Positions 10,656-63,788 of a DNA stretch of 64,000 bases are shown here, piece by piece. Position numbers and translations under genes: made by a program. Source of the stretch: an uncultured Pseudomonadota bacterium. Its GTDB lineage: Bacteria > CALINM01. Under the pieces are notes generated by a model that was not told where the DNA came from, did no database searches, and saw only the letters and a program-made list of their open reading frames with translations. Location of the stretch: assembly GCA_964540515.1 (NCBI GenBank), contig CAZIMS010000009.1:28391-92390 (forward strand), read 5' to 3'. How positions within the stretch are numbered: position 1 is the first letter of the stretch; every line of letters begins with the position of its first letter.

Positions 10656-10671
10656 AGCATCAATCGTGCCA
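10656..10671 (-). promoter_or_regulatory. Sigma-54 (RpoN) -24/-12 promoter element upstream of nifH
   Basis: Minus-strand reading TGGCACGATTGATGCT matches TGGCACG-N4-TTGCW with correct GG/GC spacing; about 35 nt upstream of nifH ATG. Confidence 0.55.
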
Positions 10672-10724: not shown

Positions 10725-10749
10725 TTACAAATTTGTAACATCTATTACA
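10725..10749. promoter_or_regulatory. Candidate enhancer/UAS: perfect palindrome TTACAAATTTGTAA overlapping a TGT-N10-ACA motif
   Basis: TGTAACATCTATTACA (10734..10749) fits the NifA-type TGT-N10-ACA spacing, about 65-80 bp upstream of the -24 element; short AT-rich motifs can arise by chance. Confidence 0.3.
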
Positions 10750-11127: not shown

Positions 11128-12452
11128 ATGATGAAAAAATTGGTAGTTTCGGTAGTGTTCTTTGCTGTCTTTATGATGTGTGGTAATGCTTTTTCAGCAG
11201 GTTTTGCTCTTATTGAGCAGAGTGTTAGTGGGTTAGGTAATGCCTATGCAGGTGGAGCAGCTCAAGCAGAGGATGCAACAACAATCTTTTATAATCCAGC
11301 AGGTATGACGAGGCTAAATGATCAGTTTATAGCAGGCCTACATTTTATCTCACCCAGTGCAAAGTTTAAAGATAATGGTTCTTCAAGACTCAATCCTTTA
11401 ATAGGGTCTCTTGGAACCAATAATGGTGGTGATGGGGGTGTTAATGCACTTGTTCCTAATATATTTTAAAAAAGATTAGCGACAAGGGAGCCTTTGGTTT
11501 GGGTGTCAATGTTCCCTTTGGTCTCGGCACTGAGTACCCCAGTGATTGGATAGGTAGATATCACGCAATAAAATCAGATATGATGACTTTAAACATAAAT
11601 CCATCCTTTGCCTATAAGGTTACTGACAAATTTAGTAAAGGTACAGGTGTAAGTGTTCAATATATAAAGGCAGAGCTTTCAAGTGCTGTTGATCAAAAGT
11701 TAATTTTAGCCTCGCAGGGAGCACCAGCTGGTGTTTGGGGAGCTGCTTCTGATTCATATTCCTCAATGGAAGGTGATGGATGGGGATATGGATATAATTT
11801 GGGTTTATTATATGAACTTTCCAAGGATACAAGGTTTGGTTTAGCCTATCGTTCAAGAGTTCAACAGTCCTTAGAGGGTGATATAAAGTTTTCAAATGTT
11901 CATACTCTTCTCTCACCAAGTCCAAACTTCCAAAATCGTTCAATTAAGGCCGATGTAGATTTACCCGATACAGTATCAGCCTCCTTTTATTCTAAAATAA
12001 CAGCCAAACTGGCCCTTATGGCAGACGTTACTTGGACTAAGTGGAGTAGGTTTAAAGAACTTAGGGTAAAAAGTACAAATGGTGCCTCTGATATTCTCAC
12101 AACAGAAAATTGGGATGATAATTATAGATACTCTTTAGGTTTAAGTTATTATGCTGATAATAAATCCACCTTCAGATTTGGTGTTGCCTATGATGAGACA
12201 CCTGTTCCAAGTCCTCAATATAGAACACCAAGAATACCAGATGGTAGTAGGAAGTGGATAGCTGCTGGTTTTGGCCATAAATTTTCAGAAAAAATTTCCT
12301 TTGATTTAGGAGCTGCCTATCTCTTTGTAAATGACCCAAAAATAAATCAGATTGCAACTCCGACTAACGAAAATGCAGTTAGAGGCAATTTAATAGGTAC
12401 CTATGACTGCAATGTGAAGATATTGAGTGCTCAAGTTAATTATAACTTCTAA
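11128..12452 (+). pseudogene. FadL/OmpP1-family outer-membrane transporter, interrupted by a frameshift near 11457..11475
   Basis: ORFs 11128..11469 (frame 1) and 11499..12452 (frame 3) are contiguous parts of one FadL-like protein; break sits in a T4/A6 homopolymer run. Confidence 0.6.
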
Positions 12453-43837: not shown

Positions 43838-45478
43838 ATGATTCAGTGGCCCAAAACAAATGATGTTTTAGGAACTACAAACCGTGGCAACCCCTGTGAG
43901 TCTGGCTTATGTACCCTATGTCGTGCCGACTGTCAGGGTAGATGTGAGACTTGGCTTTCTTCTATGGTTGGAAGAAAACTGCTCTACCCCCGTGATTTTG
44001 GATATGTTACTGCAGGAAGCGCAAATAATACTGCCATTGGGGTTAACTACAACTCTTTAAGAATTCAGGGTTATAATTATGGCTCAAAGGGATTACCAAA
44101 AGGTCTATCGAGCTCTCCAGATGATTGTATCTTCCCAAATGTTTCCATCGAAACATCCTTTGGAAATAAAGTTCAAACTAAATGTAGAGTACCTGTAATG
44201 ACTGGTGCTCTTGGGTCTACCTTTATAGCTGCTAAGTACTGGGAGTCTTTTGCTGTTGGTGCAGCTTTAGTCGGATTTCCAATCGTTGTTGGTGAAAATG
44301 TTGTTGGTGTTGATAAAAAAGCAGAGTTTAAAGACGGAAAGGTTGTAAAGGCACCAGAACTTGATAGAAGGATTGACACCTTTTTACGTTATTTTGATGG
44401 ATACGGTGCTATAATTGTTCAGTTAAATGTTGAAGATACAAGAAATGGTGTGGCAGAGTATGTTATTGATAAATACGGCGATAAAGTTATCATCGAGCTT
44501 AAATGGGGGCAGGGTGCAAAAGACATAGGAGGCGAGATACAGGTTAATGATTTAGAGTATGCTTTGTTCTTAAAGAAAAGAGGATATGTGGTAGATCCAG
44601 ATCCAACAATTCCCGAGGTACAAGAGGCCTTTAAACATAGGGCAATACGTTCTTTTGCAAGACATAGCAGGTTAGGTTATACAGATCTTAATGATGTTTC
44701 AGATGTTCAAGAGGCCTTTAATAAGGAAGTTAAAAGACTTCGTAAGTTAGGTTACAAAAGAATTACTCTAAAAACAGGCTCCTATGGTATGGAAGCCCTT
44801 GCAATGTCGATAAAATTTGCTTCTGAAGCAGGTCTTGATTTACTGACAATTGATGGTTCAGGCGGCGGAACAGGTATGAGCCCCTGGAATATGATGGAAA
44901 CTTGGGGAGTTCCCTCCCTATTTTTACATGCAAAGTCCTATGAGTATGCATCAATACTTGCTACACAGGGAAAAAATGTAATAGATATGGCCTTTGGAGG
45001 CGGTTTAGCAAGGGAAGATCATATTTTTAAGGCAATAGCTTTAGGCGCACCTTTCACAAAACTTGTATGTATGGGAAGAGCAACAATGATACCAGGCTTC
45101 TTAGGTGCAAATATTGAGGGTGTATTAAAACCAGAAAAGAGGGCAGAGCTTAATGGAAACTGGGATAAGCTTCCAGCATCTGTAACTGCTATTGGTAGTC
45201 AACCAGAAGAGATATTTGCTTCTTACTATGATGTAGAGAAAAAAGTTGGTAAAAATGAGATGAAAAATGTACCCTATGGAGCTATAGCAATCTGGACACT
45301 AATGGATAAGCTTTCTGCAGGCTTACAGCAGTTGCTTGCTGGTGCAAGAAAGTTTACTATTAAAGAGATATCAAGAGATGATCTATTTGCTGCCAATCGT
45401 GAGACAGCACAAGAAACAGGCATTCCATTTATTACCGATGCCTTAGATGAAAGTGCAAAAAAGATACTTCGTAGCTAA
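43838..45478 (+). CDS. Glutamate synthase-related FMN-domain protein (archaeal-type GltB-like)
   Basis: N-terminal Cys cluster and FMN-domain glycine-rich motif IDGSGGGTGMSP; 546 aa. Confidence 0.7.
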   Translation: MIQWPKTNDVLGTTNRGNPCESGLCTLCRADCQGRCETWLSSMVGRKLLYPRDFGYVTAGSANNTAIGVNYNSLRIQGYNYGSKGLPKGLSSSPDDCIFPNVSIETSFGNKVQTKCRVPVMTGALGSTFIAAKYWESFAVGAALVGFPIVVGENVVGVDKKAEFKDGKVVKAPELDRRIDTFLRYFDGYGAIIVQLNVEDTRNGVAEYVIDKYGDKVIIELKWGQGAKDIGGEIQVNDLEYALFLKKRGYVVDPDPTIPEVQEAFKHRAIRSFARHSRLGYTDLNDVSDVQEAFNKEVKRLRKLGYKRITLKTGSYGMEALAMSIKFASEAGLDLLTIDGSGGGTGMSPWNMMETWGVPSLFLHAKSYEYASILATQGKNVIDMAFGGGLAREDHIFKAIALGAPFTKLVCMGRATMIPGFLGANIEGVLKPEKRAELNGNWDKLPASVTAIGSQPEEIFASYYDVEKKVGKNEMKNVPYGAIAIWTLMDKLSAGLQQLLAGARKFTIKEISRDDLFAANRETAQETGIPFITDALDESAKKILRS

Positions 45479-45485
45479 TTAAGCT

Positions 45486-45518
45486 GGGGCACCTTCTTAG
45501 GTGCCCTCTAATTTTTTA
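45486..45518 (+). terminator. Intrinsic terminator after the glutamate-synthase-like gene
   Basis: GGGGCACC-loop-GGTGCCC stem followed by CTCTAATTTTTT. Confidence 0.7.
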
Positions 45519-45545: not shown

Positions 45546-47807
45546 CTACACAAAAATATCTTCTCTTTTAATATTGTATTTTCTCATCAGATTATGAAAA
45601 GTTGGTCTTGGTATTCCTGCAAGCTCTGCGGCCTTTTTTACATTTCCCATAGTTTGTTTGAGATATTTCTTAAGTAAGTTTCTTTCAAAAATGGCCAGTT
45701 GTTCTTCTCTCTGTTCCCATAAATTCTTATTGGAATTAATAAAGTTAACTTCTGGTGTTATAGATTGTATGTGGATAGGAAAATCTTTTAGTTTTAGCTC
45801 ATCTCCTTGGGCAAGAATTATTGCTCTTTCTACAACATTAGCAAGCTCTCTTATGTTTCCAGGCCAATCGTAGGCCTTTAGGTGCTTTATAATCTCTTTC
45901 TCGTAAGATATTATCTTCTTACCTAACTTTTTTGAGTTGGTCTCTATAAGATAGTGTAGAAAATATGGCAGGTCTTCCTTTCTATCTCTCAAAGGGGGTA
46001 GATGAATACTAAATACATTCAACCTATAATATAAATCTTCTCTAAATTTTCCTTCTTCTATGAGCTGTTCTAAGTTTCTGTTTGTTGCAGCAATGACTCT
46101 GGCATCTATCTTCTTAACTTCGTTACTACCTACCGGTCTAATCTCGCCGTTTTGAAGAACTCTTAATAACTTTGTCTGAAGATTAATGGGCATATCTCCT
46201 ATCTCATCAAGAAATATTGTACCATTATGTGCTACTTCAAATAATCCTTTTTTATTTTCCAAGGCTCCGGTAAAAGCACCTTTTACATGACCAAAAAGCT
46301 CACTTTCTAATAAATTTTCTGTTAAGGTAGTACAATTAACAGTTATCATAGGTCTATCATTTCGGGACGATTTCTGATGTATAAGTGTTGCTACCATCTC
46401 TTTACCGGTTCCACTTTCACCTCTAAGTAGTACTATAGCATTAGTGTGGGCAACTTTTTCAATTTGTTCCCAGATCTCTCTCATTTTGTGTGTTTTACCA
46501 AGTATAAAGCTAAACTCTTTATCTTTATATAGTTCTTTTTGAATTATCTTGTAATCATTTAAAAGATTAATATTGTTGACTGAAATCTTGTTTAACAAGT
46601 AAGGAAGACACATTTCTATCTCAGCTAAACCCATAACTACTGCTCGTGCCTTCTCATAACAGTTGTCATAACCACAGGCACCACAATTTAAGTTTTCACC
46701 ACCATTGTATGTCTTCATCTCATCTAAAATGCTCTTAATATCTTCTTCTTTTGGCTCCACAAAGATTAGTCTGTCTTTAGGAGAAAAAGTCTTCTCAAGG
46801 CCTATCTTAGGTATTACCTTCTCTTCATTCTCCCCTTGAAAATAATAATCTTTAATATATCTTTTTACCCTTTCTGCCCTCTCATAAATTGTTCCTCTAT
46901 CTTTCATCATTGGACCATCTATACAACCCTTGCAAAAAAGTATGTCTACAAATCTTGGGTTAATCTCGTTTTTTTTGAGAGAATGGAGGAAACTTAGGAC
47001 CTCATCTTTTCCATCAATCACAAGAATATCACTATCAAGAATGTCTGTTCCTATTGAAGCAGTTTTTAGAAGTCCGCCTGAAAGTGCAAATGCCCTGCCA
47101 ATTCGTGGAAAATATCCATCAAAATCTGAAAAACTTTTTCTTTTTGGGTTTATATCTCTTATAATAAACTCTTCGTCAAGCTCTTTGAAAGTTAATACTG
47201 AATCAATTGCGTAACCATCATCTTTTATCTCGCTTTTTTTTGCTATACAAGGCCCAATAAAAAAAACAAGAGCTTTATCAATCTTTTCTTTAATTAACCT
47301 TCCCATGGCAATCATAGGTGATGCGATGGGTATTAGATTATTAATTAGCTCTGGATAGAACTTAGCTATTAAATTTACTATAGCAGGACAGGGAGATGAG
47401 ATATAGGTCTTTTTTTCCGTTGTCTTAGCATTAATATTAATAATAAACTCTTTGTATTTATCAATTATAATCTCAGCACCATAGGCAGCTTCATACACAT
47501 AATTAAATCCTAATTTTCTTAGGGCAGAAACTACTTGAAGAGGGTGTACATCTTGGTAATAAGAGACAAATGAAGGGGCAAGGAGGGCAACTGTTTTTTT
47601 ATTCTTCTTCAGCGCCTCTTCTATTGTTAGACCATTTTGTATTTCTTTAGCTTCCTGTGAACAGACTTTTAAACAGTTGCCACAGACTATGCAGTTTTCT
47701 TGAATTACATAAGCTTGTTCGTTGTAAACCTTTATAGCTTTAACTGGGCATCCTCTAATACAGGAATAACATTTTTTACAAAGGCCCTCTTTTGTCTGTA
47801 TAATCAT
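45546..47807 (-). CDS. Sigma-54-dependent transcriptional activator with N-terminal 2x[4Fe-4S] ferredoxin and [FeFe]-hydrogenase H-cluster-like domain
   Basis: Two CxxCxxCxxxC motifs; hydrogenase-like motifs [23 protein letters not shown]; AAA+ sigma-54 domain ([15 protein letters not shown]); C-terminal HTH. Confidence 0.75.
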
Positions 47808-49046
47808 TTATAAGCTCCTAAAGGGTTCTAAGGCTTTTTCATTTATTCCATAAAAGTTTGAGATAAAAACACCATAATTTATAAAGGGAACTCCCATAGA
47901 TTTAAACTTTTCTATCCTTGAGCTCATATCCCTTGAGGTTAACATACATCCACCACAATGAAGCACTAACCTTACGTCTGATAGATCTTCCCATGTAGGC
48001 ATTAATCCATTTAAAAATTTAAATTTAAGTTTTTTTCCTGTTTTTTGTGCCAACATCTCAGGTAATTTTTCCCTTGCCATATCTCCTTCCTGTTGGTGGT
48101 GTGTACAGGCTTCAATAATGGCTATGGCATCTCCATCAGAGATATTGTCCAGATACTTAAGTCCTTCCAGTGAGAAAGTCAGGGCATTTTTATAATTTGC
48201 AAAGAGTATTGAAAAGGATGTTAAGAAGGTCTGTGGTGGAACCTTGCTGCATATCTCGTTAATAACCTGACTGTCGGTTATTATAAGTTTTGGTGGAACT
48301 ATTAGGTTTTTTAAAGTTGCCTCTAACTCTTCTGGTTGAATAACAGTAAGCTTTATATGTTTTTCTAATGCCTCTCTCATAATGGCCACTTGTAAAGGTT
48401 TTAATCTACCTTTGGGATAGGCCTTATTTACCGGGATAATAAGCATAAGCTCGTCACCCTCTGAGATAAGACCATCAAGTATGGATTTTTCCTTATCTTC
48501 TGATAATTTTTCTCCTATAAAAATCTTTATCTTTTCTAACCCCTCCGATGTAATTGCTGAACAAAAAAAAGCAGGGATACTCTTGTTTTTATTAGAAAAA
48601 AATAAAATATCTTTTTTTTCAATAAAAAGGTCTTTTGAAGGTTTTTCAAGATCCACTTTATTAAAAATAAAAGCGTAGGGGATAGATAGAGCTTCTAACA
48701 AGTCTATATATTTTTGTTCTTCCGAAGAGATATAAAAGTTATTATAGGATGGTTGAAAAACAAAAAATACAAAATCAGTTTTTTTAATGATTTCTTCAGT
48801 TCTTTTTAGACGTTCTTCTCCTAATATAGTTTGGTCATCGATACCAGGTGTATCAGTGAAAAGCAAAGGTCCTGCTGGCAATATCTCCATTGCCTTTTCT
48901 GTATGGTCTGTTGTAGTCCCCGCTAAAGGGGAAACAATAGATACTTTTTGTCCTGTTATGGCATTGATTAGACTTGATTTGCCCGTGTTGATTTTACCTA
49001 TAAAGGAAACTCTTTTTCTCTCTGATTTGGGTGTTTCAGTGAACAT
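47808..49046 (-). CDS. hydF: [FeFe]-hydrogenase maturation GTPase HydF
   Basis: N-terminal GTPase (GKINTGKSSL, DTPG) and C-terminal CTHH...HCGGC cluster motif. Confidence 0.85.
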   Translation of the reverse strand: MFTETPKSERKRVSFIGKINTGKSSLINAITGQKVSIVSPLAGTTTDHTEKAMEILPAGPLLFTDTPGIDDQTILGEERLKRTEEIIKKTDFVFFVFQPSYNNFYISSEEQKYIDLLEALSIPYAFIFNKVDLEKPSKDLFIEKKDILFFSNKNKSIPAFFCSAITSEGLEKIKIFIGEKLSEDKEKSILDGLISEGDELMLIIPVNKAYPKGRLKPLQVAIMREALEKHIKLTVIQPEELEATLKNLIVPPKLIITDSQVINEICSKVPPQTFLTSFSILFANYKNALTFSLEGLKYLDNISDGDAIAIIEACTHHQQEGDMAREKLPEMLAQKTGKKLKFKFLNGLMPTWEDLSDVRLVLHCGGCMLTSRDMSSRIEKFKSMGVPFINYGVFISNFYGINEKALEPFRSL

Positions 49047-50028
49047 TTATGGACCTCCTTTCGCCCTTTGAAGGGGAAATCTTTAAACCCTTTTCATATA
49101 ATATTTTTTTTATTTTCTCTATTGATAATGGTGTTTTTCCATCGTAAATTCTGTAATTTTTTCTAAGTCTCTTTGGAGTAAAGTTGGGCATAATAACATT
49201 ACAGCCACATTCAAGGGCTTCAGAAAGGGATTTTTCACCACCTAAAGTGTATAAGGCAGTTGTAGCTGGAATATTAAGATCTTCAAGAATTATTCTTGCA
49301 AAGGTTAGTATTTTAATGACAAGTTCAGTATTAGCTGCAGCGTAGTTAGAAAAAGGTGTCCCTTTAGCGGGTAGAAAAGGACCAATAGCAGCCATATCAC
49401 AATCAAGTTCTTTCATAAGAAAAATGTCTCCAATATAATCCTCTAAACTGGTATAGGGTAACCCGATAATATTACCGAGACCAACCTTATATCCAATTTT
49501 CTTTAATATTTCATAATTTTTAAGTCTATTCTTCAAAGAATCATCAGGATGTAAAGCTTTATAGGCTCTATCATTTGAGGTTTCGTGCTTGATTAAATAT
49601 CTATCAGCACCTGCATCGAAAAAGGCCTTATAATCATCATAACTACGTTCACCGATACAAAGTGTAATGGCACAGTCCATATCTTTTTTAATCTCAGATA
49701 TTATCTCAACAATAGCTTCTCGTGAATAATATAAATCTTCTCCTGACTGTAAAACTATAGTTTTTATACCTCTTTTGTATATTTTTTGAGCCGATTTTTT
49801 GATATCTTCTTTATTCATCCTGTATCTTACTATCTTGTTTGACTTTCTTATGCCACAGTATAAACAGTCTTTGCGGCAATGATTTGAAAATTCGATTATC
49901 CCCCTAAGAAAGACTTCGTTGCCATAGATTTGATTTTTTTTCTTTAGAGCTATCTCTTTATATTTATATAAATTAGTATCCATTGAAGTAATAATTTTCT
50001 TTATTTCATTTATGTTAAACATATACAT
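49036..50028 (-). CDS. hydE: [FeFe]-hydrogenase maturation radical-SAM protein HydE
   Basis: Radical SAM motif CRKDCLYC in BioB/HydE-like fold; flanked by hydG and hydF. Confidence 0.75.
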   Translation of the reverse strand: MYMFNINEIKKIITSMDTNLYKYKEIALKKKNQIYGNEVFLRGIIEFSNHCRKDCLYCGIRKSNKIVRYRMNKEDIKKSAQKIYKRGIKTIVLQSGEDLYYSREAIVEIISEIKKDMDCAITLCIGERSYDDYKAFFDAGADRYLIKHETSNDRAYKALHPDDSLKNRLKNYEILKKIGYKVGLGNIIGLPYTSLEDYIGDIFLMKELDCDMAAIGPFLPAKGTPFSNYAAANTELVIKILTFARIILEDLNIPATTALYTLGGEKSLSEALECGCNVIMPNFTPKRLRKNYRIYDGKTPLSIEKIKKILYEKGLKISPSKGERRSINVH

Positions 50029-51304
50029 CCATCTTTCCAGAAAAAACTTCCTCTATCTTATCTTTATATTTTTTTACTCTGAGCTTTTCAATTTCATTAT
50101 AAATAAAGTTATTTGCTTTAAGCCTTTTTTCTTCGTCAAAAAAATTTCTCACATACTCAGCTAAACTAAGTAATGAATTGATGTTGCAAAAATTTTTTAT
50201 CTTACCTGTTTCTGCTAACTCCAAAAAATCCTCTCCTACTCTTCCTTTTCTATAGCAGGCAGTACAAAAGCTGGGGATTAACCCGTTTTCTATAAGTGTC
50301 TCAACCATCTCAGATAAAGTCCTCTCATCGGATATACAAAACTGATTGGCATCATCTTTAGATGTATAGCCTCCTGGTGTTGTTGATGATGCAGCACTTA
50401 TCTGGGACACTCCTAAATTAAGAAGCCTATCTCTTAACTCCTTGGGCTCTCTTGTGGAAAGGATTATGCCTGTGTAGGGAACAGATATTCTTAAAACAGC
50501 AACTATATAGCTAAATAACTCATCATCAATTTTGTAGGGAGGGTTATAAGATAAGGGAGTGTTGACAGAGGGTTTAATTCTTGGAACAGAGATAGTATGC
50601 GGTCCTATAGAAAAATTGTTTTTTAGCTCTTCTATGTGTTTTAATAAGAAATATACCTCTTCATCTGGTTTAGAGAGTCCAAAGAGAACACCCATACCAA
50701 TATCTTTAATACCCGCTTCAATAGCACGAAAAGGGGCATAATATCTAAAGTCAAAATCGCTTTTTAAACCTTGGGGGTGATATATTTTATAGAGCTCTCT
50801 GTTATAGGTCTCTTGAAATAACTGATATGTTCCTATGTTTGTCTCTTTTAAGGTTTTAAAGTCATAAAGAGTGAGTGGGGCTATATTAACATTAATCCTT
50901 CTTATATTGCTACCATTATATTTTATAGAATAGATATAGCATATGCTGTCGCAGATATAGTTTAAACTGTCACTTTCTCCTGACACCAAAAGTATACGCT
51001 TAACCCCTTGCTTCAAAAGGAAAGTGGTTTCATTATATATCTCTTCTTGAGACAGTTTTTTTCTCTTTATCTCTTTATTTTCTTTTCGAAATCCGCAATA
51101 TAGACAGGAGTTAGTGCAAAAATTTGATATATATAGAGGAGAGAAAAGGACAACTCTCTTTCCATAAATCTTATTTTTTATTTTGTTTGCTAAAGAAAGG
51201 ACCTTCTGCTGTGTAACTTTATCTTTACAGTTAAGAAGCTCGTAAGCCTCTTCTGCCGATAAACCCCGATATTTTTTCGCTCTTAAAAGGATATTTGATA
51301 TCAT
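50015..51304 (-). CDS. hydG: [FeFe]-hydrogenase maturation radical-SAM tyrosine lyase HydG
   Basis: Radical SAM CTNSCLYC plus C-terminal CxxC-x22-C motif (CTACYR...NFC) that separates HydG from ThiH. Confidence 0.85.
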   Translation of the reverse strand: MISNILLRAKKYRGLSAEEAYELLNCKDKVTQQKVLSLANKIKNKIYGKRVVLFSPLYISNFCTNSCLYCGFRKENKEIKRKKLSQEEIYNETTFLLKQGVKRILLVSGESDSLNYICDSICYIYSIKYNGSNIRRINVNIAPLTLYDFKTLKETNIGTYQLFQETYNRELYKIYHPQGLKSDFDFRYYAPFRAIEAGIKDIGMGVLFGLSKPDEEVYFLLKHIEELKNNFSIGPHTISVPRIKPSVNTPLSYNPPYKIDDELFSYIVAVLRISVPYTGIILSTREPKELRDRLLNLGVSQISAASSTTPGGYTSKDDANQFCISDERTLSEMVETLIENGLIPSFCTACYRKGRVGEDFLELAETGKIKNFCNINSLLSLAEYVRNFFDEEKRLKANNFIYNEIEKLRVKKYKDKIEEVFSGKMDVYV

Positions 51305-51469
51305 AATATGTGAAAGTCAATACAATATGTAAAGAATATATTACACAAAAAGTTGTCATATTGACAATAAAAAATTAGTTTTAGTTAAAAAACAATATGA
51401 AATAGTGCCAAGATAATTTTATTAAGTTTAATCTTTTCTTTATTCCTTTGATTTATACTAAGTAGAGAT

Positions 51470-51510
51470 AAAAAAATTCCGGGAAGGGGCTTGGCTATGC
51501 CCCGTTCCCG
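51470..51510 (-). terminator. Orphan intrinsic-terminator-like element in divergent intergenic region
   Basis: GC-rich 11-bp stem (CGGGAAGGGGC / GCCCCGTTCCCG, one bulge) followed on the minus strand by a T7 run; no minus-strand coding gene upstream. Confidence 0.4.
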
Positions 51511-51748
51511 TTATAGTAGGGAGGGAAAGTATGTATATTTTTATAAGCAATATATGTGCCAATTGCAAAATTTTTTGTAGATGTTAAAAATATTATTTCT
51601 TAGTTTAAAATAATTATTGATAGCTATAAAAAATTAGATAGTTTTGTTCAGATTTACAAATAACAGCAGAGAGACTATGATTTTTATGATTTAAATTATT
51701 GTGGTTTTTTCGCTATAATAATACAAGTTATTTCACGTAGGAGGTTAG

Positions 51749-53834: not shown

Positions 53835-54356
53835 ATGGATCATCTTGATTTTTTAAAAAATTCTTTAAAGGAAGCAATAATCTTTGAACAAAATGGTAGA
53901 GAATTTTTTTTAAAGTCTGCTGAAGAGGCAAAAAATCCTTTTACCAAGGAAATATTTAAAACTCTTGCCGATGAGGAGTTAAAGCACATAAAAAGAGTAA
54001 AAGAGGTTTTTGATAGTCTCGTAAGGGGAAATATAATTCCAGAAAATTTACCTGTCTCTGAAAATAAACCCTGGAAGAATATTTTCAAAGATGCCTTGGA
54101 AAGGTTTAAAGATCTTGTAAAAAGCGATATGCAGGATAAAGAAGCTATAAAGTTAGGTCTTGATTTTGAATCAAAGGGTTTTAAATTTTATGATGAGATG
54201 GCAAAAAAGTCATCAAATCCAATAGAGAAGAAGTTTTTTGAGATTTTGAGAGATGAGGAAGAGGGACATTACCTGTTAATTGAAAATTTAGAAAAATTTT
54301 TGCTAAACCCTGTTGATTGGTACGGAGAAAAGGAACATCATATCTTTGAGGGGTAA
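53835..54356 (+). CDS. Rubrerythrin/ferritin-like diiron-domain protein
   Basis: Paired E..ExxH motifs (EELKHI, EEEGHY); AGGAGG RBS. Confidence 0.6.
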   Translation: MDHLDFLKNSLKEAIIFEQNGREFFLKSAEEAKNPFTKEIFKTLADEELKHIKRVKEVFDSLVRGNIIPENLPVSENKPWKNIFKDALERFKDLVKSDMQDKEAIKLGLDFESKGFKFYDEMAKKSSNPIEKKFFEILRDEEEGHYLLIENLEKFLLNPVDWYGEKEHHIFEG

Positions 54357-54419
54357 GAAATAGGAAAATTAACTTTTTCTTTAATCTTATCTATATTTTT
54401 TTTAACTTTTTCTCTAACT

Positions 54420-55115
54420 TTGTCTGATGCACTCTCTTTAGGGTGGTTGGCGAAGGATCCATTAAAAAAGGGAGAGATATATCTTGATAAGGTAATTGAT
54501 GGTGATACAATACTTTTAAAAGATGGCAGATATGTAAGGCTTATTGGGATAGATACGCCTGAGGTTAGAAGAAAGATTGATGGTAAATGGGTAGATATCT
54601 CAGAACCCTATAGTAGAGAAGCTACCGAGTTTTTAAAAAAAATTTTATATGATAAAAAAATAACTCTTGATTACGATAGCGAGATCAAAGACAGCTACAA
54701 TAGAGAGCTTTGTTACGTATACTCAGATGGTATCTTAGTTAATGATGCAATCTTAAAGGAAGGGTTAGCTTTCCCTTACTTAAAAAACAAGAAACTTAAG
54801 TATTATCAGAGACTCAAAAATGCCTTTTATGAGGCCGTGAGACAACAAAAAAATATCTATAAGATAAATCTGAAAGGTGAGAAGAATTTAAATAAATATG
54901 TAGGAAAGGATGTTTTTTACGAAGGGGTTGTAAGAAACATTCATTTGGGTTCCTCTTCAACTGAGCTAATTTTTGATAACTTGATTGTTATAGCTGAAGG
55001 TTCACATAGAGGTATAAAAAGAGGAGATTACTTGTTTGCCTATGGAAAACTTACTCAGAAAAATAGGAGATTTATAATAATATCTCAGAGAAATAGGATC
55101 TTTTATTTTGATTGA
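54420..55115 (+). CDS. Thermonuclease (SNase-like) family protein
   Basis: SNase-like motifs (VIDGDTI, RLIGIDTPE); non-ATG start in track. Confidence 0.7.
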   Translation: MSDALSLGWLAKDPLKKGEIYLDKVIDGDTILLKDGRYVRLIGIDTPEVRRKIDGKWVDISEPYSREATEFLKKILYDKKITLDYDSEIKDSYNRELCYVYSDGILVNDAILKEGLAFPYLKNKKLKYYQRLKNAFYEAVRQQKNIYKINLKGEKNLNKYVGKDVFYEGVVRNIHLGSSSTELIFDNLIVIAEGSHRGIKRGDYLFAYGKLTQKNRRFIIISQRNRIFYFD

Positions 55116-56572
55116 TCAAAAGAAGAAAAAAGTTCATCAAAATTGTTTCCATCCTCAGGATAGGAAACAATTTTGTATATAAAAGGGATACCCTCTTTTG
55201 AAAGCTTCTCTCTTAGGAAATTTATTTTCTCATTTATCTCTTCAACGCCTGTTTGATCAAAAACTACAAAGTCGTCGCCACCAGCTCTAACAACGATTGA
55301 TGGTGTAAGAAATATAGATTGTAGATAATGGGCTGTTTTAATAATTATCTCATCACCCTTTATCCTTCCTTTTGTTCTGTTTATTTCTGATATGCCCTTT
55401 ATATCAATTAGTACTAAGTAAAAGGTCTGATTTTCCTGAATCTTCTCCTTTAAAAAGTTTTTTAAGTAGGGGTACCAGTATAGACCTGTAAGAAAATCTA
55501 TATAAACCATCGCTTCTCTAAACTTCTCTATATAGGGAGATATAGAGCTTTTTACTTCTTCTAAATCTTCTATTTCTTCAAGTACTGATATAGATGCTTC
55601 TCTCAAATCAGGGTCAAATTTTTTACCGAACTCAGATATTATGTAATCTATCACGTCGTTCTTTGCCATCTTTTTTCTATAGGGTCTTAAAGAAGAAAGG
55701 GCATCATAATTATCCGCAATGGATATTATTCTCGATTCAAGGGGGATATTTTTAGCCTTTAAACCTTCTGGATAACCTTTTCCGTCAAAGTTTTCGTGGT
55801 GATATTTTATCCAGGGTATTATGCTATTTAGTGGTGTTATCTCAGAAACTATTAAGGCACTCATACCAGGATGATTTTTCATAATCATATACTCAAAATC
55901 TGTTAGTTTTCCGGGCTTAAGCAGGATCAGGTCTGGAATACCAACCTTTCCTACATCGTGGAGAAGTCCTGCAAGCTCAAGTTTCTTTAATGATTCTTCT
56001 TCAAAGCCCAATTTTTTTGCTATTTTAGTAGATATTAGAGCCACTCTTTCTGAATGACCTCTTGTATAAGGGTCTCGAGCTTCTATAGCGTTTGCCAGTG
56101 CTTTAACAGATTGTATGGCGAGCTGTTCTAACATTTCTGTTCGTTCTTTAAGAAGGCTCTCAACGTGACTAAAGTATTTCTTGCTTTGTTTAATGTTTAA
56201 ACAATAATTAAGAGCACTATCTATCTTTTCTTTTATTTGTTGTAATGTGAAGGGCTTTGGTATAAAGTCAAAGACACCTTTAGAAAGGGCAGATTGAATT
56301 ATCTCAACATTAACGGAACCACTAATAATTATTATTGGAATGTCTTTATAAATGCCACTTTTAAGATTATCTACAAAGGGTAGGGAGTTTACTCCTTTCA
56401 AAAACACATCAAGTATTACTAAATCTACTTCAGGATTGGAGGAGAAAAATTTATTAGCTTCATCAATCTCTGAAAATGCCTCTACTTGGTATCCCAAAAG
56501 CTCACCAAAATCTTTTAACATCTCTCGAGGAGCCGTATCATCATCTATTATAACTATTCTTGGTTCTTTCAT
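55103..56572 (-). CDS. Response regulator with HD-GYP phosphodiesterase domain and degenerate GGDEF-like C-terminus
   Basis: REC domain, HD-GYP motifs (HSERV, HDVGK, GYP), C-terminal GGDDF. Confidence 0.75.
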   Translation of the reverse strand: MKEPRIVIIDDDTAPREMLKDFGELLGYQVEAFSEIDEANKFFSSNPEVDLVILDVFLKGVNSLPFVDNLKSGIYKDIPIIIISGSVNVEIIQSALSKGVFDFIPKPFTLQQIKEKIDSALNYCLNIKQSKKYFSHVESLLKERTEMLEQLAIQSVKALANAIEARDPYTRGHSERVALISTKIAKKLGFEEESLKKLELAGLLHDVGKVGIPDLILLKPGKLTDFEYMIMKNHPGMSALIVSEITPLNSIIPWIKYHHENFDGKGYPEGLKAKNIPLESRIISIADNYDALSSLRPYRKKMAKNDVIDYIISEFGKKFDPDLREASISVLEEIEDLEEVKSSISPYIEKFREAMVYIDFLTGLYWYPYLKNFLKEKIQENQTFYLVLIDIKGISEINRTKGRIKGDEIIIKTAHYLQSIFLTPSIVVRAGGDDFVVFDQTGVEEINEKINFLREKLSKEGIPFIYKIVSYPEDGNNFDELFSSFDQSK

Positions 56573-58782
56573 TTAATACCTAATATGGAGATGAGGTCGT
56601 TAAAACTAAAGGGTTTAATAAGAAAAGGACGTCCTGTCTTTTTTAGTTTTTCTCTTGTATCAAGACTTACCTCTCCGGTTATGAAGACAACTCTTTTTGC
56701 TAACTCTTCATTTTCTTTTAATAAATCGTAGAAAAGCTCTGTTCCATCTTTATCAGGTAACCTGTTATCAAGTATAATAACATCATAAGTATTATGTTTC
56801 ATTAGTTTAACAGCGCTCTGGGCATCCTTTGCCTCGTCAACTCTATATTTGAAAGTAAAAAGTATATCAGATAAATATTCTCTAACTGTAGTGTCGTCGT
56901 CAATGACTAATGCCTTTTTAAACTCATCAGGTTTAAAGGAGGTCTTGTCATCAATGTTATCAGTAATTTTTTCTTCTTTCTTAATAGTAATAGGAAGCTG
57001 TATTTTGAAGGTAGTACCATTTTTTGAGGTCTCGAAGCTTATAGTACCTTTATGCATCTGAATAATTCTATGAACAAGAGATAATCCTAATCCTGTTCCT
57101 TTACCCTGCGATTTTGTGGTAAAGAAGGGTTGGAAGATTTTATCTTTTATATTCTCCGGAATGCCATGTCCATTGTCAGAAACAGTTAGTACGACATTAT
57201 TGTCATCTATTTTTTTAGCCTCAAGTTTAACTTTATTTCCTTTACCGCCGCTTGTTATAGCATCAAAGGCGTTCTGAAGAAGATTTAAAACCACCTGCTG
57301 TATTAGTCCAGAGTTGCAATAAACTAATGGCAAATTATCTTCAATATCAATCTCAAGGTGAATGTTATTTTCCTCGAAGGAGGCAGATATCAAAAAGCTA
57401 ACTTCTTTTAAGGTAGAAGAGATGTCTGTGTAAGACATATCCATTATTTGTTGTTTTCTTGAGAATTTTAAAAGGTTTTCGATTATATTCTTAACTCTAA
57501 AACTTTCTCTTTGAATCTTATCTACAACATCTAATACTTTCTTAGGTACCAAATCCTTGTAAAATGTAAGCAACTCAGCGTAACCTATAATTCCTGTTAT
57601 AGGATTATTAATCTCGTGGGCAATATTTGCGGCTAACTCACCTATTGATACCAATTTAGCTGATTGAATAAGCTCTTCCTGAGTCTTTAATTCTGATGTT
57701 ATGTCATTGAAAGTTATAATCACACACTCCTGATTATTAAATATTAAAGGAGAGGCGCTAAGCTTGTAATAGTTATCATCAAGCGTGAAAATTTTTGTGT
57801 AAGTATTTTCTTTTTTAGAATCAGCTATACTGTTAAAAATTTCATCAATAGAGATATCATCAATATAAAAGAGCTTACTCTCTCTAAAAGAGCCTGCTTT
57901 GTCGATTATTTTTTTTGCTTTATCGTTCATCTTGATAATTTCCTTGTTGACATTAACGAATAGTAGCCCTTCGCTCATTCTTGAGATAATATTCTCTAGG
58001 AGACTATTAATTTGTTGAATCTGCTTTTCCTTTAGTACCTCTCCCGTAATATCTTCTTGTATTTCTACTATTTTATTAATTTTTCCATCTAAATCATATA
58101 TGGGATAGCTTGAAATATTTATGTACCTAATGCCACTTTCTGTGGGGACTTCAATTATATCTCTTGTAGCTTTTCCTTCAAAGCTTTCTGCAACAGGACA
58201 GCCTCCGTCCTTTAAGCAAAAGTCTTTACCAAAGGTTAAGTCATAACATTTTTTACCAATGATATCATCAAGATTAAGACCTCTCTTTTTCAAAAATGAG
58301 TTGTTTGCTAAACTTATAGTCCTCTCAGAATCTATGATTATTATCTCACTACCAACACTGTTTAAGATAGTGTCAAGGAAGTCTCGCTCTTGTTTGAGCT
58401 TCTTTTCTACCTGTTTAATTTTAAGGGCTGTATTTATTCTGGCGAAGAGCTCATTCTCATCAAAAGGCTTTGTTATATAGTCAATAGCCCCAAGATTAAG
58501 ACCTGTAACAAGGTCTTTTTTATCTAAATATCGGGCTGTTAAGAAGATTATCGGTATATCTTTAATATTGTCTTTTTCTTTTATCATCTTACAAAGCGTA
58601 AAACCATCAATCTCAGGCATCATTATATCAAGGATAATTAAGTCAGGGCCTTCCTTCTCAATAATAGAGATTGCATCTTTTGGATAAGAAGACAATATAG
58701 TAGAGTAACCTCTTTGTTTGAGATATAAATCTAATATTTTTAAATTTTCAATCTCATCGTCTATAACTAAAATTTTCTCCAT
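56569..58782 (-). CDS. Hybrid sensor histidine kinase (REC-PAS-HisKA-HATPase-REC)
   Basis: N- and C-terminal receiver domains, H-box AHEINNPI, G-box GTGLGL. Confidence 0.8.
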
Positions 58783-61145: not shown

Positions 61146-62150
61146 GTGATTATGGATATTAAAATTAGTCGAAGAAATTTTTTATTAGGCACGGGCTTGT
61201 TAACAGCAGGGAGTTTACTGCCAGCTGTAAGTGCTAATAGTGCGATTGATGATGGTTCCTTTGCTACTCTAATTGACTTAACAAAATGTGATGGCTGTAA
61301 AGAATATGAGATGCCACTTTGTGTAAAGGCCTGTAAAAATGGCAATCAAAGTAAGTTTCCTGAGCCTGATAAGAAAATGTTAAAGCCCTATTGGCCACAA
61401 AAGTTTTATGATGACTGGAGCTCGAAAAGAAATGTCATAGATAGATTAACTCCATACAACTGGATCTTTGTTCAAAGAGTGAAAATTAATAAAGACGGTA
61501 AAGAGGAAGAAATATCTGTTCCAAGAAGATGTATGCATTGTGATAATCCACCCTGTGCAAAGCTCTGTCCTTTTGGAGTTAATAAAAAACACTCTGAAGG
61601 TCCTGTAACCATAGATTGCAAACTCTGCTTTGGCGGTGCTAAATGTAAGGATGTCTGCCCATGGGGTGTACCTCAAAGACAGGCAGGTGTAGGTATATAT
61701 ACAAAATTAGACCCTCTACCAGTAGGCGGCGGGGTTATGTATAAATGTGATTTGTGTTTCGATGAGATAAAGAAGGGAAACGTCCCTTATTGTGTTAAAG
61801 ATTGTCCTAAGAAGGCTATAAGTTTTGGAAGACGTAGTGAGATATTTAAGATGGCAGATGCCATGGCAAAAGAAAAAGGTTTATATATATACGGAAAAGA
61901 AGAAAACGGCGGTACTTCTACAATTTATTTGAGCTCTGTATCTTTTGAAGAGATTGATAAAGCGATTATAGCATCTACAGAAGACAATAAAAAGGTTATG
62001 AGATTCCACAAACCAAAGAATATGTTAGAGAAATATAAAAATTTAGCTAGATTAGTACTTTTCGCTCCTATTTTAGGAATAATATCTGCATTATTTTCTG
62101 CTAATAGTGATATAAAGAAAAATTTAAGAAAGGAGAAAAAACATGAGTAA
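61146..62150 (+). CDS. Tat-exported 4Fe-4S ferredoxin-type iron-sulfur protein (HybA/FdnH/NrfC-like)
   Basis: Twin-arginine signal RRNFLLG plus four Cys clusters; probable true start at ATG 61152. Confidence 0.7.
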   Translation: MIMDIKISRRNFLLGTGLLTAGSLLPAVSANSAIDDGSFATLIDLTKCDGCKEYEMPLCVKACKNGNQSKFPEPDKKMLKPYWPQKFYDDWSSKRNVIDRLTPYNWIFVQRVKINKDGKEEEISVPRRCMHCDNPPCAKLCPFGVNKKHSEGPVTIDCKLCFGGAKCKDVCPWGVPQRQAGVGIYTKLDPLPVGGGVMYKCDLCFDEIKKGNVPYCVKDCPKKAISFGRRSEIFKMADAMAKEKGLYIYGKEENGGTSTIYLSSVSFEEIDKAIIASTEDNKKVMRFHKPKNMLEKYKNLARLVLFAPILGIISALFSANSDIKKNLRKEKKHE

Positions 62151-62805
62151 AAATAACAAGATTTTAAGACATACAAGGAAAGAAATATTAATTCATTGGC
62201 TTGTAGCTATAAGTGGGATTGTATTGATTATTAGCGGCTTTGGTGAGATGCCAATGTATAAAAGGTATAATATAACTAAGATTCCATTTTTGCAATTTTT
62301 GGGTAGTTATGAGATCAACTTAATAATCCATTATGTTTTTGCAGCAATCTTTGTTTTTGCCGTATTTTTTCATATTTTTTATCATTCAAAAAAGAGAGAG
62401 TTTTCATTACTACCAAAGAAGGGAGACTTTAAAGAGAGTATACATGTGTTAAAGGCAATTATTAAAGGAGAAAAAGAGCCTCCCCATCTAAAGTTTTTGG
62501 CTGAACAAAGACTTGCCTATGTTGCCATTGGTTTTGTTAGTCTTATACTAATAGTAACAGGACTAATTAAAACTTATAAAAATTTAGGCCCAATAGTTTT
62601 AAACCCAGATTTTCTAATGATTGTCACATTGATTCATACGATTGCTACTATATTCTTTATTATATTGTTGATTTTACATTTAGGTGCTTTTATTGTTAAA
62701 GATAATAGAGAGCTTTTAAAGTCAATGTTTACAGGTTATGTGAATTATGATTATGCAAGAAGAAGACATCCAAAATGGTTAGAAGAAATGGAGAAACAAA
62801 ATTAA
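62143..62805 (+). CDS. Membrane b-type cytochrome (FdnI/HyaC-like quinone-interacting anchor)
   Basis: 220 aa, four TM helices with conserved histidines; translationally coupled to the FeS protein. Confidence 0.55.
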   Translation: MSKNNKILRHTRKEILIHWLVAISGIVLIISGFGEMPMYKRYNITKIPFLQFLGSYEINLIIHYVFAAIFVFAVFFHIFYHSKKREFSLLPKKGDFKESIHVLKAIIKGEKEPPHLKFLAEQRLAYVAIGFVSLILIVTGLIKTYKNLGPIVLNPDFLMIVTLIHTIATIFFIILLILHLGAFIVKDNRELLKSMFTGYVNYDYARRRHPKWLEEMEKQN

Positions 62806-63788
62806 GTAAGATGTTCATAGGAGAGGGGAGAGATCTTTATCCTTTTATTATCTCTTTCTAGATACAATCCTTTAGGGATAATCTCTCCTGCTATGGCTAA
62901 GGGTACTTTCAACTTTTTTGCTAAAGAGTATATTTTGACTTTGTTATCTTTGTTAGCGGTAAATAGAAGCTCGTAGTCATCTCCACCATTAAGGATAAAG
63001 CTATCTATCTCTCTATTACTAAAAAATTTTTTTAAAGTTTCTGAAGAGTTTTCTTTTAAAAAGTTTTCATAAATAAGGGCACCACATTCACTCTCCTCAA
63101 GAATATGGAAGAGGTCTCCTAAAAAACCATCACTTATATCAATCATAGAATTAATTAATCTTTCTTTCGCAAGCATTAAAGCAAAATCCATTCTTAAATT
63201 AGGTCTTAAAAATTTCTCAACATAGCAAGATAATGCTTTATCTCTTATATGTTTTTTTAAGATATGTAATCCAGCCGAGGCCATACCGATTTTACCAGTG
63301 TAGTAAATATAATCCCCTACCTTTGCCCCTCCTCTAAAAATTGGATTATTTTTCATTTTACCTATAGCTGATACAGATATAGCAAGAGTTTTACAGGTAG
63401 ATATGTCGCCACCAATTATGGCAACATTATATTTTAGAGAGGCTTCTTTTATACCCATAAGAATTTGATCGATATATGTATTTTTAAACTTTGGTGGGAT
63501 GAGTAGATTGAGTAAATAAAACTCTGGGGTACCACCCATAGCAATTATATCGCTTATTGATCTGACTATCGCCTTGTAACCAATAGACTTATAATCCATT
63601 CCTATAGATATGTCAAAATGAACACCTTCCACCATATTGTCAACCGTATAAAGGTTGTAATTATTAAATTTTTTAATTACAGCGCAGTCATCACCAATGG
63701 CTTTAAAGATATTTTTTTTTTCTGGGAATAGTTTTTTTATTTTTTTTATGAGCTCAAACTCAGAGTAAGATGTCTTTTGTTTTTTCAT
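62802..63788 (-). CDS. thiL: Thiamine-monophosphate kinase
   Basis: AIR-synthase-related fold (AIGDDCAV...), 328 aa. Confidence 0.85.
   Translation of the reverse strand: MKKQKTSYSEFELIKKIKKLFPEKKNIFKAIGDDCAVIKKFNNYNLYTVDNMVEGVHFDISIGMDYKSIGYKAIVRSISDIIAMGGTPEFYLLNLLIPPKFKNTYIDQILMGIKEASLKYNVAIIGGDISTCKTLAISVSAIGKMKNNPIFRGGAKVGDYIYYTGKIGMASAGLHILKKHIRDKALSCYVEKFLRPNLRMDFALMLAKERLINSMIDISDGFLGDLFHILEESECGALIYENFLKENSSETLKKFFSNREIDSFILNGGDDYELLFTANKDNKVKIYSLAKKLKVPLAIAGEIIPKGLYLERDNKRIKISPLSYEHLT

Follow-up and report, generated by a model that had tools for sequence, protein, structure and literature searches.

The contig CAZIMS010000009.1 of an uncultured Pseudomonadota bacterium carries, within the stretch of 64,000 nucleotides analysed here (hereafter the window, whose positions serve as coordinates throughout), the genes of the three [FeFe]-hydrogenase maturases HydG, HydE and HydF. 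They are followed by the gene of a 753-residue protein in which a sensory-type [FeFe]-hydrogenase module is joined to the output module of a sigma-54 activator, or enhancer-binding protein (EBP). The genes, the two modules of the fused protein and the hairpin that bounds the operon region are as follows:

50015..51304, minus strand: hydG, 429 residues, radical-SAM maturase that makes the Fe(CO)2CN synthon (TIGR03955, 473.5 bits, cut-off 312)
49036..50028, minus strand: hydE, 330 residues, radical-SAM maturase (TIGR03956, 322.1 bits, cut-off 255)
47808..49046, minus strand: hydF, 412 residues, GTPase scaffold for the [2Fe] subcluster (TIGR03918, 420.2 bits, cut-off 326)
45546..47807, minus strand: sigma-54 activator (EBP) gene, 753 residues, starting directly after the hydF stop codon
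46517..47807, minus strand: sensor module, residues 1-430 (Pfam, hydrogenase alignment, AlphaFold2, Foldseek)
45546..46516, minus strand: output module, residues 431-753 (AAA+, lid and HTH_8)
45486..45507, plus strand: GC-rich hairpin scored as a plus-strand terminator, between the convergent ends of the activator gene and a Glu_synthase-domain gene

The maturases were identified with NCBIfam equivalog models and their curated cut-offs; all three score above these and carry the cofactor motifs of the maturation system. HydG has an intact CX3CX2C motif at residue 63 and a C-terminal CX2CX22C motif at residues 347-373, HydE has CX3CX2C at residue 51, and HydF shows a P-loop, CxH at 314 and HCxxC at 363, and matches both HydF_dimer and HydF_tetramer in Pfam. 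The hydG and hydE genes overlap by 14 nt and hydE and hydF by 11 nt, while the activator gene's ATG comes immediately after the stop of hydF (gap of 0 nt); hydG-hydE-hydF-EBP is a single transcription unit. The initial annotation had placed the four open reading frames at exactly these positions on the minus strand, with the maturases co-operonic with the fused activator and no gap before it, and the junctions bear this out. It had also found no structural hydrogenase in the operon or the window, and we agree: Pfam and tblastn detect no other Fe_hyd_lg_C, NiFeSe_Hases or Oxidored_q6 protein among the open reading frames of at least 100 residues in the window. The minus strand beyond the activator gene holds no further gene. 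The hydG gene has no recognisable Shine-Dalgarno sequence and its orthologues are arranged alike; AGGAGG-like sites precede hydF and the activator gene.

The N-terminal part of the 753-residue protein had been described as resembling a hydrogenase catalytic domain, and the profile searches and alignment suggested with that description support it. Pfam finds a Fer4-type domain (residues 6-52), Fe_hyd_lg_C over its full profile (residues 70-299, 159 bits, profile positions 1-245 of 245) and an FeS domain (PF04060, residues 372-402), in addition to the Sigma54_activat and HTH_8 domains of the output module, and the H-cluster ligands are all kept. The N-terminal ferredoxin-like 2x[4Fe-4S] domain has eight cysteines at residues 10-49, and the C-terminal four-cysteine site is formed by C375, C378, C383 and C400. 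In the H-domain, C140, C187, C292 and C295 align with the L1, L2 and L3 motifs and correspond to CpI C300, C355, C499 and C503; K190 and E193 are also present, and P139 replaces the proton-relay cysteine. At the level of motifs, YISSPCP corresponds to FTSCCP, GPCIAKKSE to MPCxxKxxE and the L3 stretch to ExMxCxxGCxxGG. A phmmer search against the PDB matches true hydrogenases, namely HDCR HydA2 (E = 1.9e-22), T. maritima HydA, CpI and DdH, and the SSPCP sequence indeed aligns to the TSCCP of HDCR HydA2 and T. maritima HydA. The three residues CpI C299, M353 and M497, which are altered in sensory types according to the TmHydS study (PMC10055695), are Pro, Gly and Leu here (SSPCP, GPC, DILFC), with K358 and E361 retained. 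The proposed reading of the motif as sensory rather than catalytic is supported by three second-sphere substitutions around four conserved cluster cysteines. The four cysteines, Lys190, Glu193 and the AP, SP and GG pocket motifs are invariant in 62 mixed homologues, as are the H-cluster columns in an alignment of 22 sigma-54-fused homologues. The AlphaFold2 model of residues 1-430 has a mean predicted local distance difference test score (pLDDT) of 88.8 and a predicted template-modelling score (pTM) of 0.86, and all of the top 50 Foldseek matches to it in the PDB are [FeFe] hydrogenases (best CbA5H, 8zqd, E = 1.3e-21, query TM-score, TMq, 0.67). The full-length AlphaFold model is less well defined (pLDDT 69.6), its linker and cluster regions being too uncertain for the domain packing to be read. 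A Nar1/NARF-like identity, raised with the initial annotation as the finding that would speak against it, is not supported: the APS, SP, PCxxKxxE, GG and CxxC pocket motifs are kept and the maturases are co-operonic.

This arrangement is shared with the sensory hydrogenases HydS of group C (M2f, TmHydS) and group D (M2e, TamHydS), which likewise have two N-terminal [4Fe-4S] sites, an H-domain with all of the cluster cysteines and a C-terminal four-cysteine cluster; the N-terminal 2x[4Fe-4S] domain and the atypical C-terminal [4Fe-4S] site serve to define HydS (PMC13104023). The positions of C299, M353 and M497 that are occupied by Pro, Gly and Leu here are Ala, Gly and Ser in TmHydS. The numbering is nearly collinear with that of TamHydS, in which C20 and C379 have been mutated, cysteines being found at positions 20 and 378 here. 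Group C proteins possess a PAS domain, and a 2024 survey in Cell describes the group as PAS-fused, whereas Pfam finds no PAS domain after the C-terminal cluster, or elsewhere in the 753-residue protein. From its sequence, the sensor layout therefore resembles M2e/group D, with no PAS domain, a C-terminal four-cysteine site and numbering close to that of TamHydS. Characterised HydS relatives bind an H-cluster and are altered at C299, M353 and M497 (TmHydS, PMC10055695; TamHydS, PMC13104023). TamHydS stands alone, and the 2026 paper on this Thermoanaerobacter mathranii protein considers its interaction partners, still to be identified, as a critical missing step (PMC13104023); here the module is covalently joined to an AAA+/HTH module, which makes the signalling partner explicit.

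The C-terminal part is, as initially proposed, a sigma-54 AAA+ and helix-turn-helix module. Pfam assigns Sigma54_activat to residues 435-602 (242.7 bits), followed by AAA_lid_14 and by HTH_8 at residues 704-744 (33 bits, cut-off 22); GESGTGK is found at residue 463, GAFTGA at 510 and DEIG at 534; and the AAA+ domain matches NtrC1, LuxO, FleQ and FlrC in Foldseek with target TM-scores (TMt) of about 0.9. In the AlphaFold2 model, a linker helix (residues 397-426) runs directly from the sensor into the AAA+ domain. In the 753-residue protein, a sensory-type [FeFe]-hydrogenase module and a sigma-54 enhancer-binding module are genuinely fused.

The sensor family is known to be combined with exchangeable outputs. 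The HydDB group C classes are linked to histidine kinases (C1), chemotaxis receptors (C2) or phosphatases (C3) only, and none is linked to sigma-54 (PMC5037454); the principle is the same here and the output differs. More than 5,000 relatives of the sensor module are in the databases; histidine kinases are the fusion partner in the majority, GGDEF or methyl-accepting chemotaxis protein (MCP) domains in some, and relatives with 42-47% identity fused to HisKA/HATPase, MCPsignal or GGDEF occur in thousands of database proteins. Fusions to sigma-54 modules make up 23 of its best 120 relatives. In a scan of one genome per species, the full-length sensor/sigma-54 fusion is present in 64 species-level genomes, among them Moorella thermoacetica and other Moorella, Candidatus Formimonas, Thermincola, Carboxydothermus islandicus, Desulfosporosinus, Acididesulfobacillus, Fuchsiella and many metagenome-assembled genomes (MAGs) of Desulfuromonadales. 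The fusion had been called uncharacterised in the initial annotation. This stands as regards function: the open-access literature on [FeFe] hydrogenases or HydS with sigma-54, RpoN, NtrC or enhancer-binding proteins yielded no functional study of it, and neither HydDB nor the reviews on sensory [FeFe] hydrogenases contain a sigma-54-linked class. The architecture, however, is not rare, and Fer4, Fe_hyd_lg_C and FeS already appear among the N-terminal regulatory domains of Clostridiales EBPs in the catalogue of Nie, Dong and Yang (2019, BMC Genomics; PMC6615313), which, at least in the part that lists them, gives no regulon, signal, HydEFG or [NiFe] link for this combination.

The genes around the fusion were mapped by tblastn, within the available flank, in the 64 fused loci (those cited individually bear L-numbers, our labels for related loci), with the following neighbours:

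20/64 loci: [NiFe] small- and large-subunit genes, mostly just downstream of the activator gene
13/64 loci: catalytic-type HydA, mostly with HydB/HydC
1/64 loci: FdhA
28/64 loci: none of [NiFe], HydA or FdhA
9/64 loci: adjacent hydE, hydF or hydG

The nine maturase-adjacent loci belong to unrelated lineages (the clade of the window, Peptococcaceae/Acididesulfobacillus, Carboxydothermus and Dethiobacter); seven of them have an adjacent [NiFe] hydrogenase and none an adjacent catalytic HydA. Because the maturase linkage recurs in at least three distant lineages, the sensor probably needs an H-cluster. This neighbour pattern is what would be expected if the maturases travel with the sensor as its makers, the sensor being their client. 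The clade of the window itself consists of MAGs only, 73-89% identical. Beyond it, the best matches of the isoleucyl-tRNA synthetase IleRS reach at most 55-56% identity, and those with a name are Desulfobacterota/'Deltaproteobacteria' (Geotalea, Desulfacinum) and one Nitrospira MAG. The four-gene cassette is complete in L006, L010 and L014, with flanking genes that differ between loci; the sensor gene of L093 is cut by the contig end, and L013 and L015 begin within hydF.

About 30 distant loci have a strict sigma-54 promoter 150-760 bp (mostly 150-400 bp) past the stop codon of the activator gene and co-oriented with it. The genes that follow this promoter are [NiFe] genes in Peptococcaceae, Thermincola and Carboxydothermus, with TGTCTA-N6-TAGACA upstream, and focA/fdhA in Fuchsiella and Desulforamulus. 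Other genes also occur at this place. In three Desulfuromonadales MAGs (L025, L029 and L032), the promoter lies about 210-240 bp after the activator gene and is followed by a gene for a GAF-domain phosphoenolpyruvate-utilising enzyme (PtsP/EI-Ntr-like), with no hydrogenase; such a neighbour would link the sensor to the nitrogen phosphotransferase system in Desulfuromonadales. In Moorella (L004, 12400-12416; also L017 and L075), a perfect sigma-54 promoter just past the activator gene precedes an open reading frame of about 60-90 residues without a Pfam match and a peptidase U32 gene; upstream there is a bifurcating hydCBA cluster, to which separate stand-alone HydS, DRTGG and PHP genes belong.

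In the window, the candidate control elements lie between hydG and the aconitase gene. Read along the minus strand, they are a sigma-54 promoter, a short RNA with a terminator, a sigma-70-like promoter and a first palindrome, a second palindrome being located inside hydG:

51547..51561, minus strand: sigma-54 (-24/-12) promoter TGGCACATATATTGC, with flanks TTGGCACATATATTGCT, predicted start near 51535
51470..51535, minus strand: candidate sigma-54-dependent C-rich small RNA or terminated leader of about 65 nt (sequence, RNAfold, conservation)
51338..51367, minus strand: sigma-70-like promoter TTGTCA-18-TAATAT, 9/12 in a consensus scan, between the terminator and hydG, weak alone
51328..51345, no strand: palindrome 1, TGTAAAGAATATATTACA (TGT-N12-ACA), 18 bp, 24 nt upstream of the hydG ATG, candidate activator site
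51212..51229, no strand: palindrome 2, TGTAACTTTATCTTTACA, within the first ~30 codons of hydG, 116 bp from palindrome 1

The window contains three exact matches to TGGCA-N6-TTGC, of which that at 51547-51561 is the sole intergenic one. This promoter is kept at the same place in L006, L010, L014, L093, L098 and L100; promoter, RNA and palindromes are together conserved in seven distinct loci (the window and these six) with differing flanking genes. A further sigma-54-like match, TGGTATCATTGTTGC at 45080-45094 on the minus strand, just past the activator gene, is antisense to the Glu_synthase-domain gene in which it lies, has nothing downstream of it and was taken as chance. The predicted RNA comprises an invariant segment CATACTTTCCCTCCCTACTA that begins at the predicted start, an unpaired 5' segment CAUACUUUCCCUCCCUACUA (51514-51533), a hairpin CGGGAACGGGGC/GCCCCUUCCCG (51480-51510) and a run of seven U residues (51470-51476). 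RNAfold predicts a GC-rich hairpin of -21.5 kcal/mol (z = -3.3) and an unpaired 5' tail. Two sequence variants exist over the seven loci. Since L014, L093 and L100 share one and the same variant-B body despite divergence of the promoter spacer and flanks, selection appears to act on the RNA sequence itself. The region upstream of hydG matches no Rfam family (best E = 0.28, far below the gathering score), and within the window the complement of the RNA matches the RNA gene alone. Its 5' end is anti-Shine-Dalgarno-like, being complementary to GGGAGGG-N5-AUG, that is, to a strong ribosome-binding site and start codon, and translational repression is therefore the obvious guess, with no particular target that can be named. 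Pairing with the ribosome-binding sites of [NiFe] genes was dropped as evidence for a target, as it reflects generic Shine-Dalgarno/anti-Shine-Dalgarno complementarity.

The two palindromes are the only exact occurrences of TGTAA-N8-TTACA in the 64 kb (2 found, 0.11 expected), and none of the TGTAAT-N6-ATTACA type lies upstream of the RNA promoter. The position of palindrome 1 is kept in the same six related loci; the spacing of the two sites is 114-116 bp in the window and in L006 and L010, compared with 83 bp in L014, L093, L098 and L100. Palindrome 1 overlaps the -10 hexamer of the sigma-70-like promoter, of which TTGACT/TTGATT...TAATAT/TAATCT counterparts exist in L006 and L014. A Rex operator was ruled out as the identity of these palindromes, the Rex site being TTGTGAA-N4-TTCACAA (PMC5886521), with the spacing TTGTG-N8-CACAA compared with TGT-N12-ACA here. 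By sequence match, the locus thus combines a -24/-12 promoter with nearby palindromes, and the activator very probably binds at TGTAAT-N6-ATTACA.

The same geometry is found at [NiFe] hydrogenase operons. All six [NiFe]-hyp operons examined in the clade (L006, L014, L015, L103, L104 and L106) carry palindromes of TGT-N12-ACA geometry; five of the six have two sites in tandem at a distance of exactly 19 bp, and L106 has a single site. A TGGCA[CT]-N5-TTGA[AT] element lies 62-157 bp downstream of the palindromes, about 50-75 nt before the ATG. This palindrome-promoter pair is present regardless of the position of the activator gene, which is adjacent in L014 and L015, 4.5 kb off in L006 and absent from the fetched locus in the others. 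In Firmicute orthologues, TGTCTA-N6-TAGACA (also TGT-N12-ACA) is found upstream of TTGGCAY-N5-TTGCA, between the activator and the [NiFe] genes. From these sites, the regulon in this clade would take in the operon of the [NiFe] uptake hydrogenase and the small RNA, with hydGEF-EBP itself under (auto)regulation. It should be noted that in L103, L104 and L106 a rubrerythrin-SNase pair adjoins the [NiFe]-hyp operon; the pair in the window (53835-55115, plus strand) lies between the aconitase gene and a response-regulator/HD/GGDEF gene, with no hydrogenase. Because this region is rearranged in the window, the [NiFe] operon of the organism, if present, is presumably elsewhere.

These observations lead us to propose that the operon encodes a one-component sensor-activator for hydrogen (or for the redox state of the H-cluster) together with the machinery for its cofactor. 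HydG, HydE and HydF would build the [2Fe] subcluster and load the N-terminal domain with it; in that domain every H-cluster ligand is kept and the catalytic proton relay is gone, as in the slow sensory TmHydS and TamHydS. Binding or oxidation of H2 would shift the redox state or the conformation of the sensor, and the signal, passing through the helix 397-426, would gate the assembly and ATPase activity of the AAA+ ring. The HTH_8 domain would bind the 18-bp TGTAAT-N6-ATTACA palindromes and, by analogy with its family, the active ring would remodel sigma-54 RNA polymerase at nearby -24/-12 promoters. The sole such promoter in the window would drive the C-rich RNA of about 65 nt that ends just upstream of hydG. 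The palindromes may activate this promoter from downstream and also auto-repress the operon: they lie between the terminator and the hydG start, downstream of the RNA promoter, and overlap the sigma-70-like -10, which suggests a dual action at hydG. Such a double role is speculation, with a parallel in NtrC, which both activates and represses at glnA/glnL. The [NiFe] uptake hydrogenase-hyp operon, outside the window, would be the likely main target. Taken as a whole, this mechanism of a H2-sensing one-component activator with its own maturases seems to us fairly probable from the sequences at hand.

Several points weigh against it. Cofactor insertion, H2 binding, DNA binding and transcription are all inferred from sequence. 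The hydG palindromes sit downstream of the sigma-54 promoter (at about +200 and +315), which is unusual for enhancer sites, and the clade [NiFe] promoters have TTGA at -12, where TTGC is canonical. The [NiFe] operon of this organism was not found in the window, and homologue look-ups with the L006 large subunit gave only relatives from other samples. The 28 fused loci without hydrogen or formate genes nearby imply that the targets vary. H2 does not reduce the C-terminal cluster of TamHydS (PMC13104023), which leaves the route of signalling unclear. Finally, rpoN is absent from the 64-kb window, where the -24/-12 element before nifH (described below) suggests that sigma-54 is in use in this organism.

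The signal could be other than H2, with the output unchanged: redox poise, CO or O2 sensed through the Fe-S and H-cluster cofactors. Both CO and O2 bind to the H-cluster, CO users are found among the hosts of orthologues in several cases (Carboxydothermus, Thermincola), and some orthologues stand beside genes with no obvious H2 link (ptsP-like, peptidase U32); a 2022 review also still terms the sensory role of HydS putative (PMC8924675). The nearby genes, however, are overwhelmingly concerned with H2 or formate (20 loci with [NiFe], 13 with HydA(BC), plus FdhA/FocA), and both TmHydS and TamHydS do react with H2, so we regard this alternative as unlikely. A stronger departure would be an N-terminal domain that holds [4Fe-4S] clusters only, of the Nar1/NARF type, with hydGEF serving a catalytic HydA elsewhere and the activator regulating maturation. 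The palindromes at the hydG start do suggest that the activator regulates the maturase operon; yet the invariance across the 62 homologues of the four H-cluster cysteines, the PCxxKxxE Lys and Glu and the AP, SP and GG motifs, the true hydrogenases found as best matches in both sequence and fold, and maturases that adjoin [NiFe] targets and never a catalytic HydA in the 64 loci make it improbable. As regards the short transcript, it might be a leader with conditional read-through of its terminator, the sigma-54 promoter then being a positively autoregulated promoter of hydGEF-EBP without any trans-acting RNA. The RNA lies directly upstream of hydG in the same orientation, and hydG has neither a recognisable ribosome-binding site nor a strong promoter of its own. 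Against this, the strong hairpin (-21.5 kcal/mol) is followed by U7, no alternative antiterminator pairing is predicted, and the RNA body is better conserved than its flanks. The analogous RNAs are, moreover, free-standing: in E. coli, glmY lies upstream of glrK-glrR, and in Vibrio, qrr1 lies beside luxO, both being small RNA genes next to genes of sigma-54 activators. They share with the present case a sigma-54 promoter and a short terminated RNA beside the operon of its activator; there is no sequence or Rfam relationship, and the RNA described here differs by its C-rich, anti-Shine-Dalgarno-like 5' end. The leader interpretation is somewhat unlikely on this evidence.

The initial annotation had also proposed nitrogenase, some 35 kb away, as a target, on the grounds of a sigma-54 promoter upstream of nifH; nitrogenase produces H2. 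The elements found there are the following:

10657-10671, minus strand: -24/-12 element TGGCACGATTGATGC, 38 nt before the nifH ATG, one mismatch to TGGCA-N6-TTGC
10734-10749, minus strand: NifA-type TGT-N10-ACA, about 70 bp further upstream of the nifH element

The element is present with one mismatch, and patterns of this class are not above chance in the window (15 found, 9.9 expected). The upstream site is of the NifA type, TGTAAT-N6-ATTACA is not found upstream of nifH even with three mismatches allowed, and no relative among the mapped fused loci has the activator beside nif genes (tblastn). We consider direct coupling of H2 to nitrogenase through this promoter highly improbable, and the proposal is not borne out. 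There may be an indirect link, the H2 made by nitrogenase being recycled through the uptake hydrogenase. The nif cluster has the order nifH-D-K, a radical-SAM gene (nifB-like), modB-C-A, a fused nifEN, nifX and two P-II genes; there is no nifA in the window.

Besides this nifHDK-nifB-modABC-nifEN cluster (1-10.6 kb), the window holds a Mrp antiporter, feoB, housekeeping genes, aconitase and a two-component pair. The latter, near the hyd operon (55103-58782, minus strand), consists of a hybrid histidine kinase (REC-PAS-HisKA-HATPase) and, after it, a response regulator that carries HD and GGDEF domains, a cyclic di-GMP signalling pair. Two consecutive open reading frames on the plus strand (11128-11469, profile 4-97, and 11499-12452, profile 111-421) together encode an outer-membrane protein of the FadL/TodX family (Pfam Toluene_X); the split may reflect interruption of the gene, a pseudogene or an error of assembly. 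A HybA/HmcB-like Fe-S protein and a cytochrome b (FdhI-like) are encoded as a pair at 61146-62805 (plus strand) with no adjacent catalytic subunit gene. The AIR-synthase-like gene at 62802-63788 was considered as HypE and ruled out, since it is ThiL by TIGR01379 (243 bits).

The closest functional analogues of the proposed H2-sensing activator are HoxBC-HoxJ-HoxA of Cupriavidus necator and HupUV-HupT-HupR, in which a [NiFe] regulatory hydrogenase controls uptake genes via a kinase and an NtrC-family activator. The likeness to HoxBC-HoxJ-HoxA lies in a slow sensor hydrogenase that detects H2 and an NtrC-family activator that turns on [NiFe] uptake genes. The differences are that the sensor here is of the [FeFe] type, matured by HydEFG and not by Hyp, and that three proteins are merged in one, with no phosphorelay. 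The sensor family, the idea of exchangeable outputs and the widespread and catalogued architecture are already known. What appears to be new is the conserved coupling to private maturases, the candidate operators and targets (the [NiFe] uptake hydrogenase, not nitrogenase) and the sigma-54-dependent small RNA.

In its widest form, the proposal is that an H-cluster protein with private HydEFG acts as a non-enzyme master switch for H2, in a lineage near Desulfobacterota and independently in several Firmicutes, and directly activates the [NiFe] uptake hydrogenase and an undescribed C-rich small RNA via sigma-54, HydEFG being perhaps kept solely for the sensor. We put this forward tentatively, its chances being a little short of even. 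If true, a single regulatory circuit would connect two hydrogenase cofactor systems that are unrelated to each other. The fusion itself is unlikely to astonish a specialist; its value is to make the question of HydS sensing and signalling experimentally simple. With sensor and signalling partner in one polypeptide, and with probable DNA sites and promoters readable from the sequence, the question of H2 sensing by HydS becomes directly testable. If confirmed, the system would provide a one-protein H2 biosensor and would mean that [FeFe]-type sensors govern [NiFe] uptake hydrogenases, while the small RNA would extend H2-responsive regulation to the post-transcriptional level. The presence of HydEFG in a genome would then not necessarily mean a H2-producing metabolism, which bears on inference from metagenomes.

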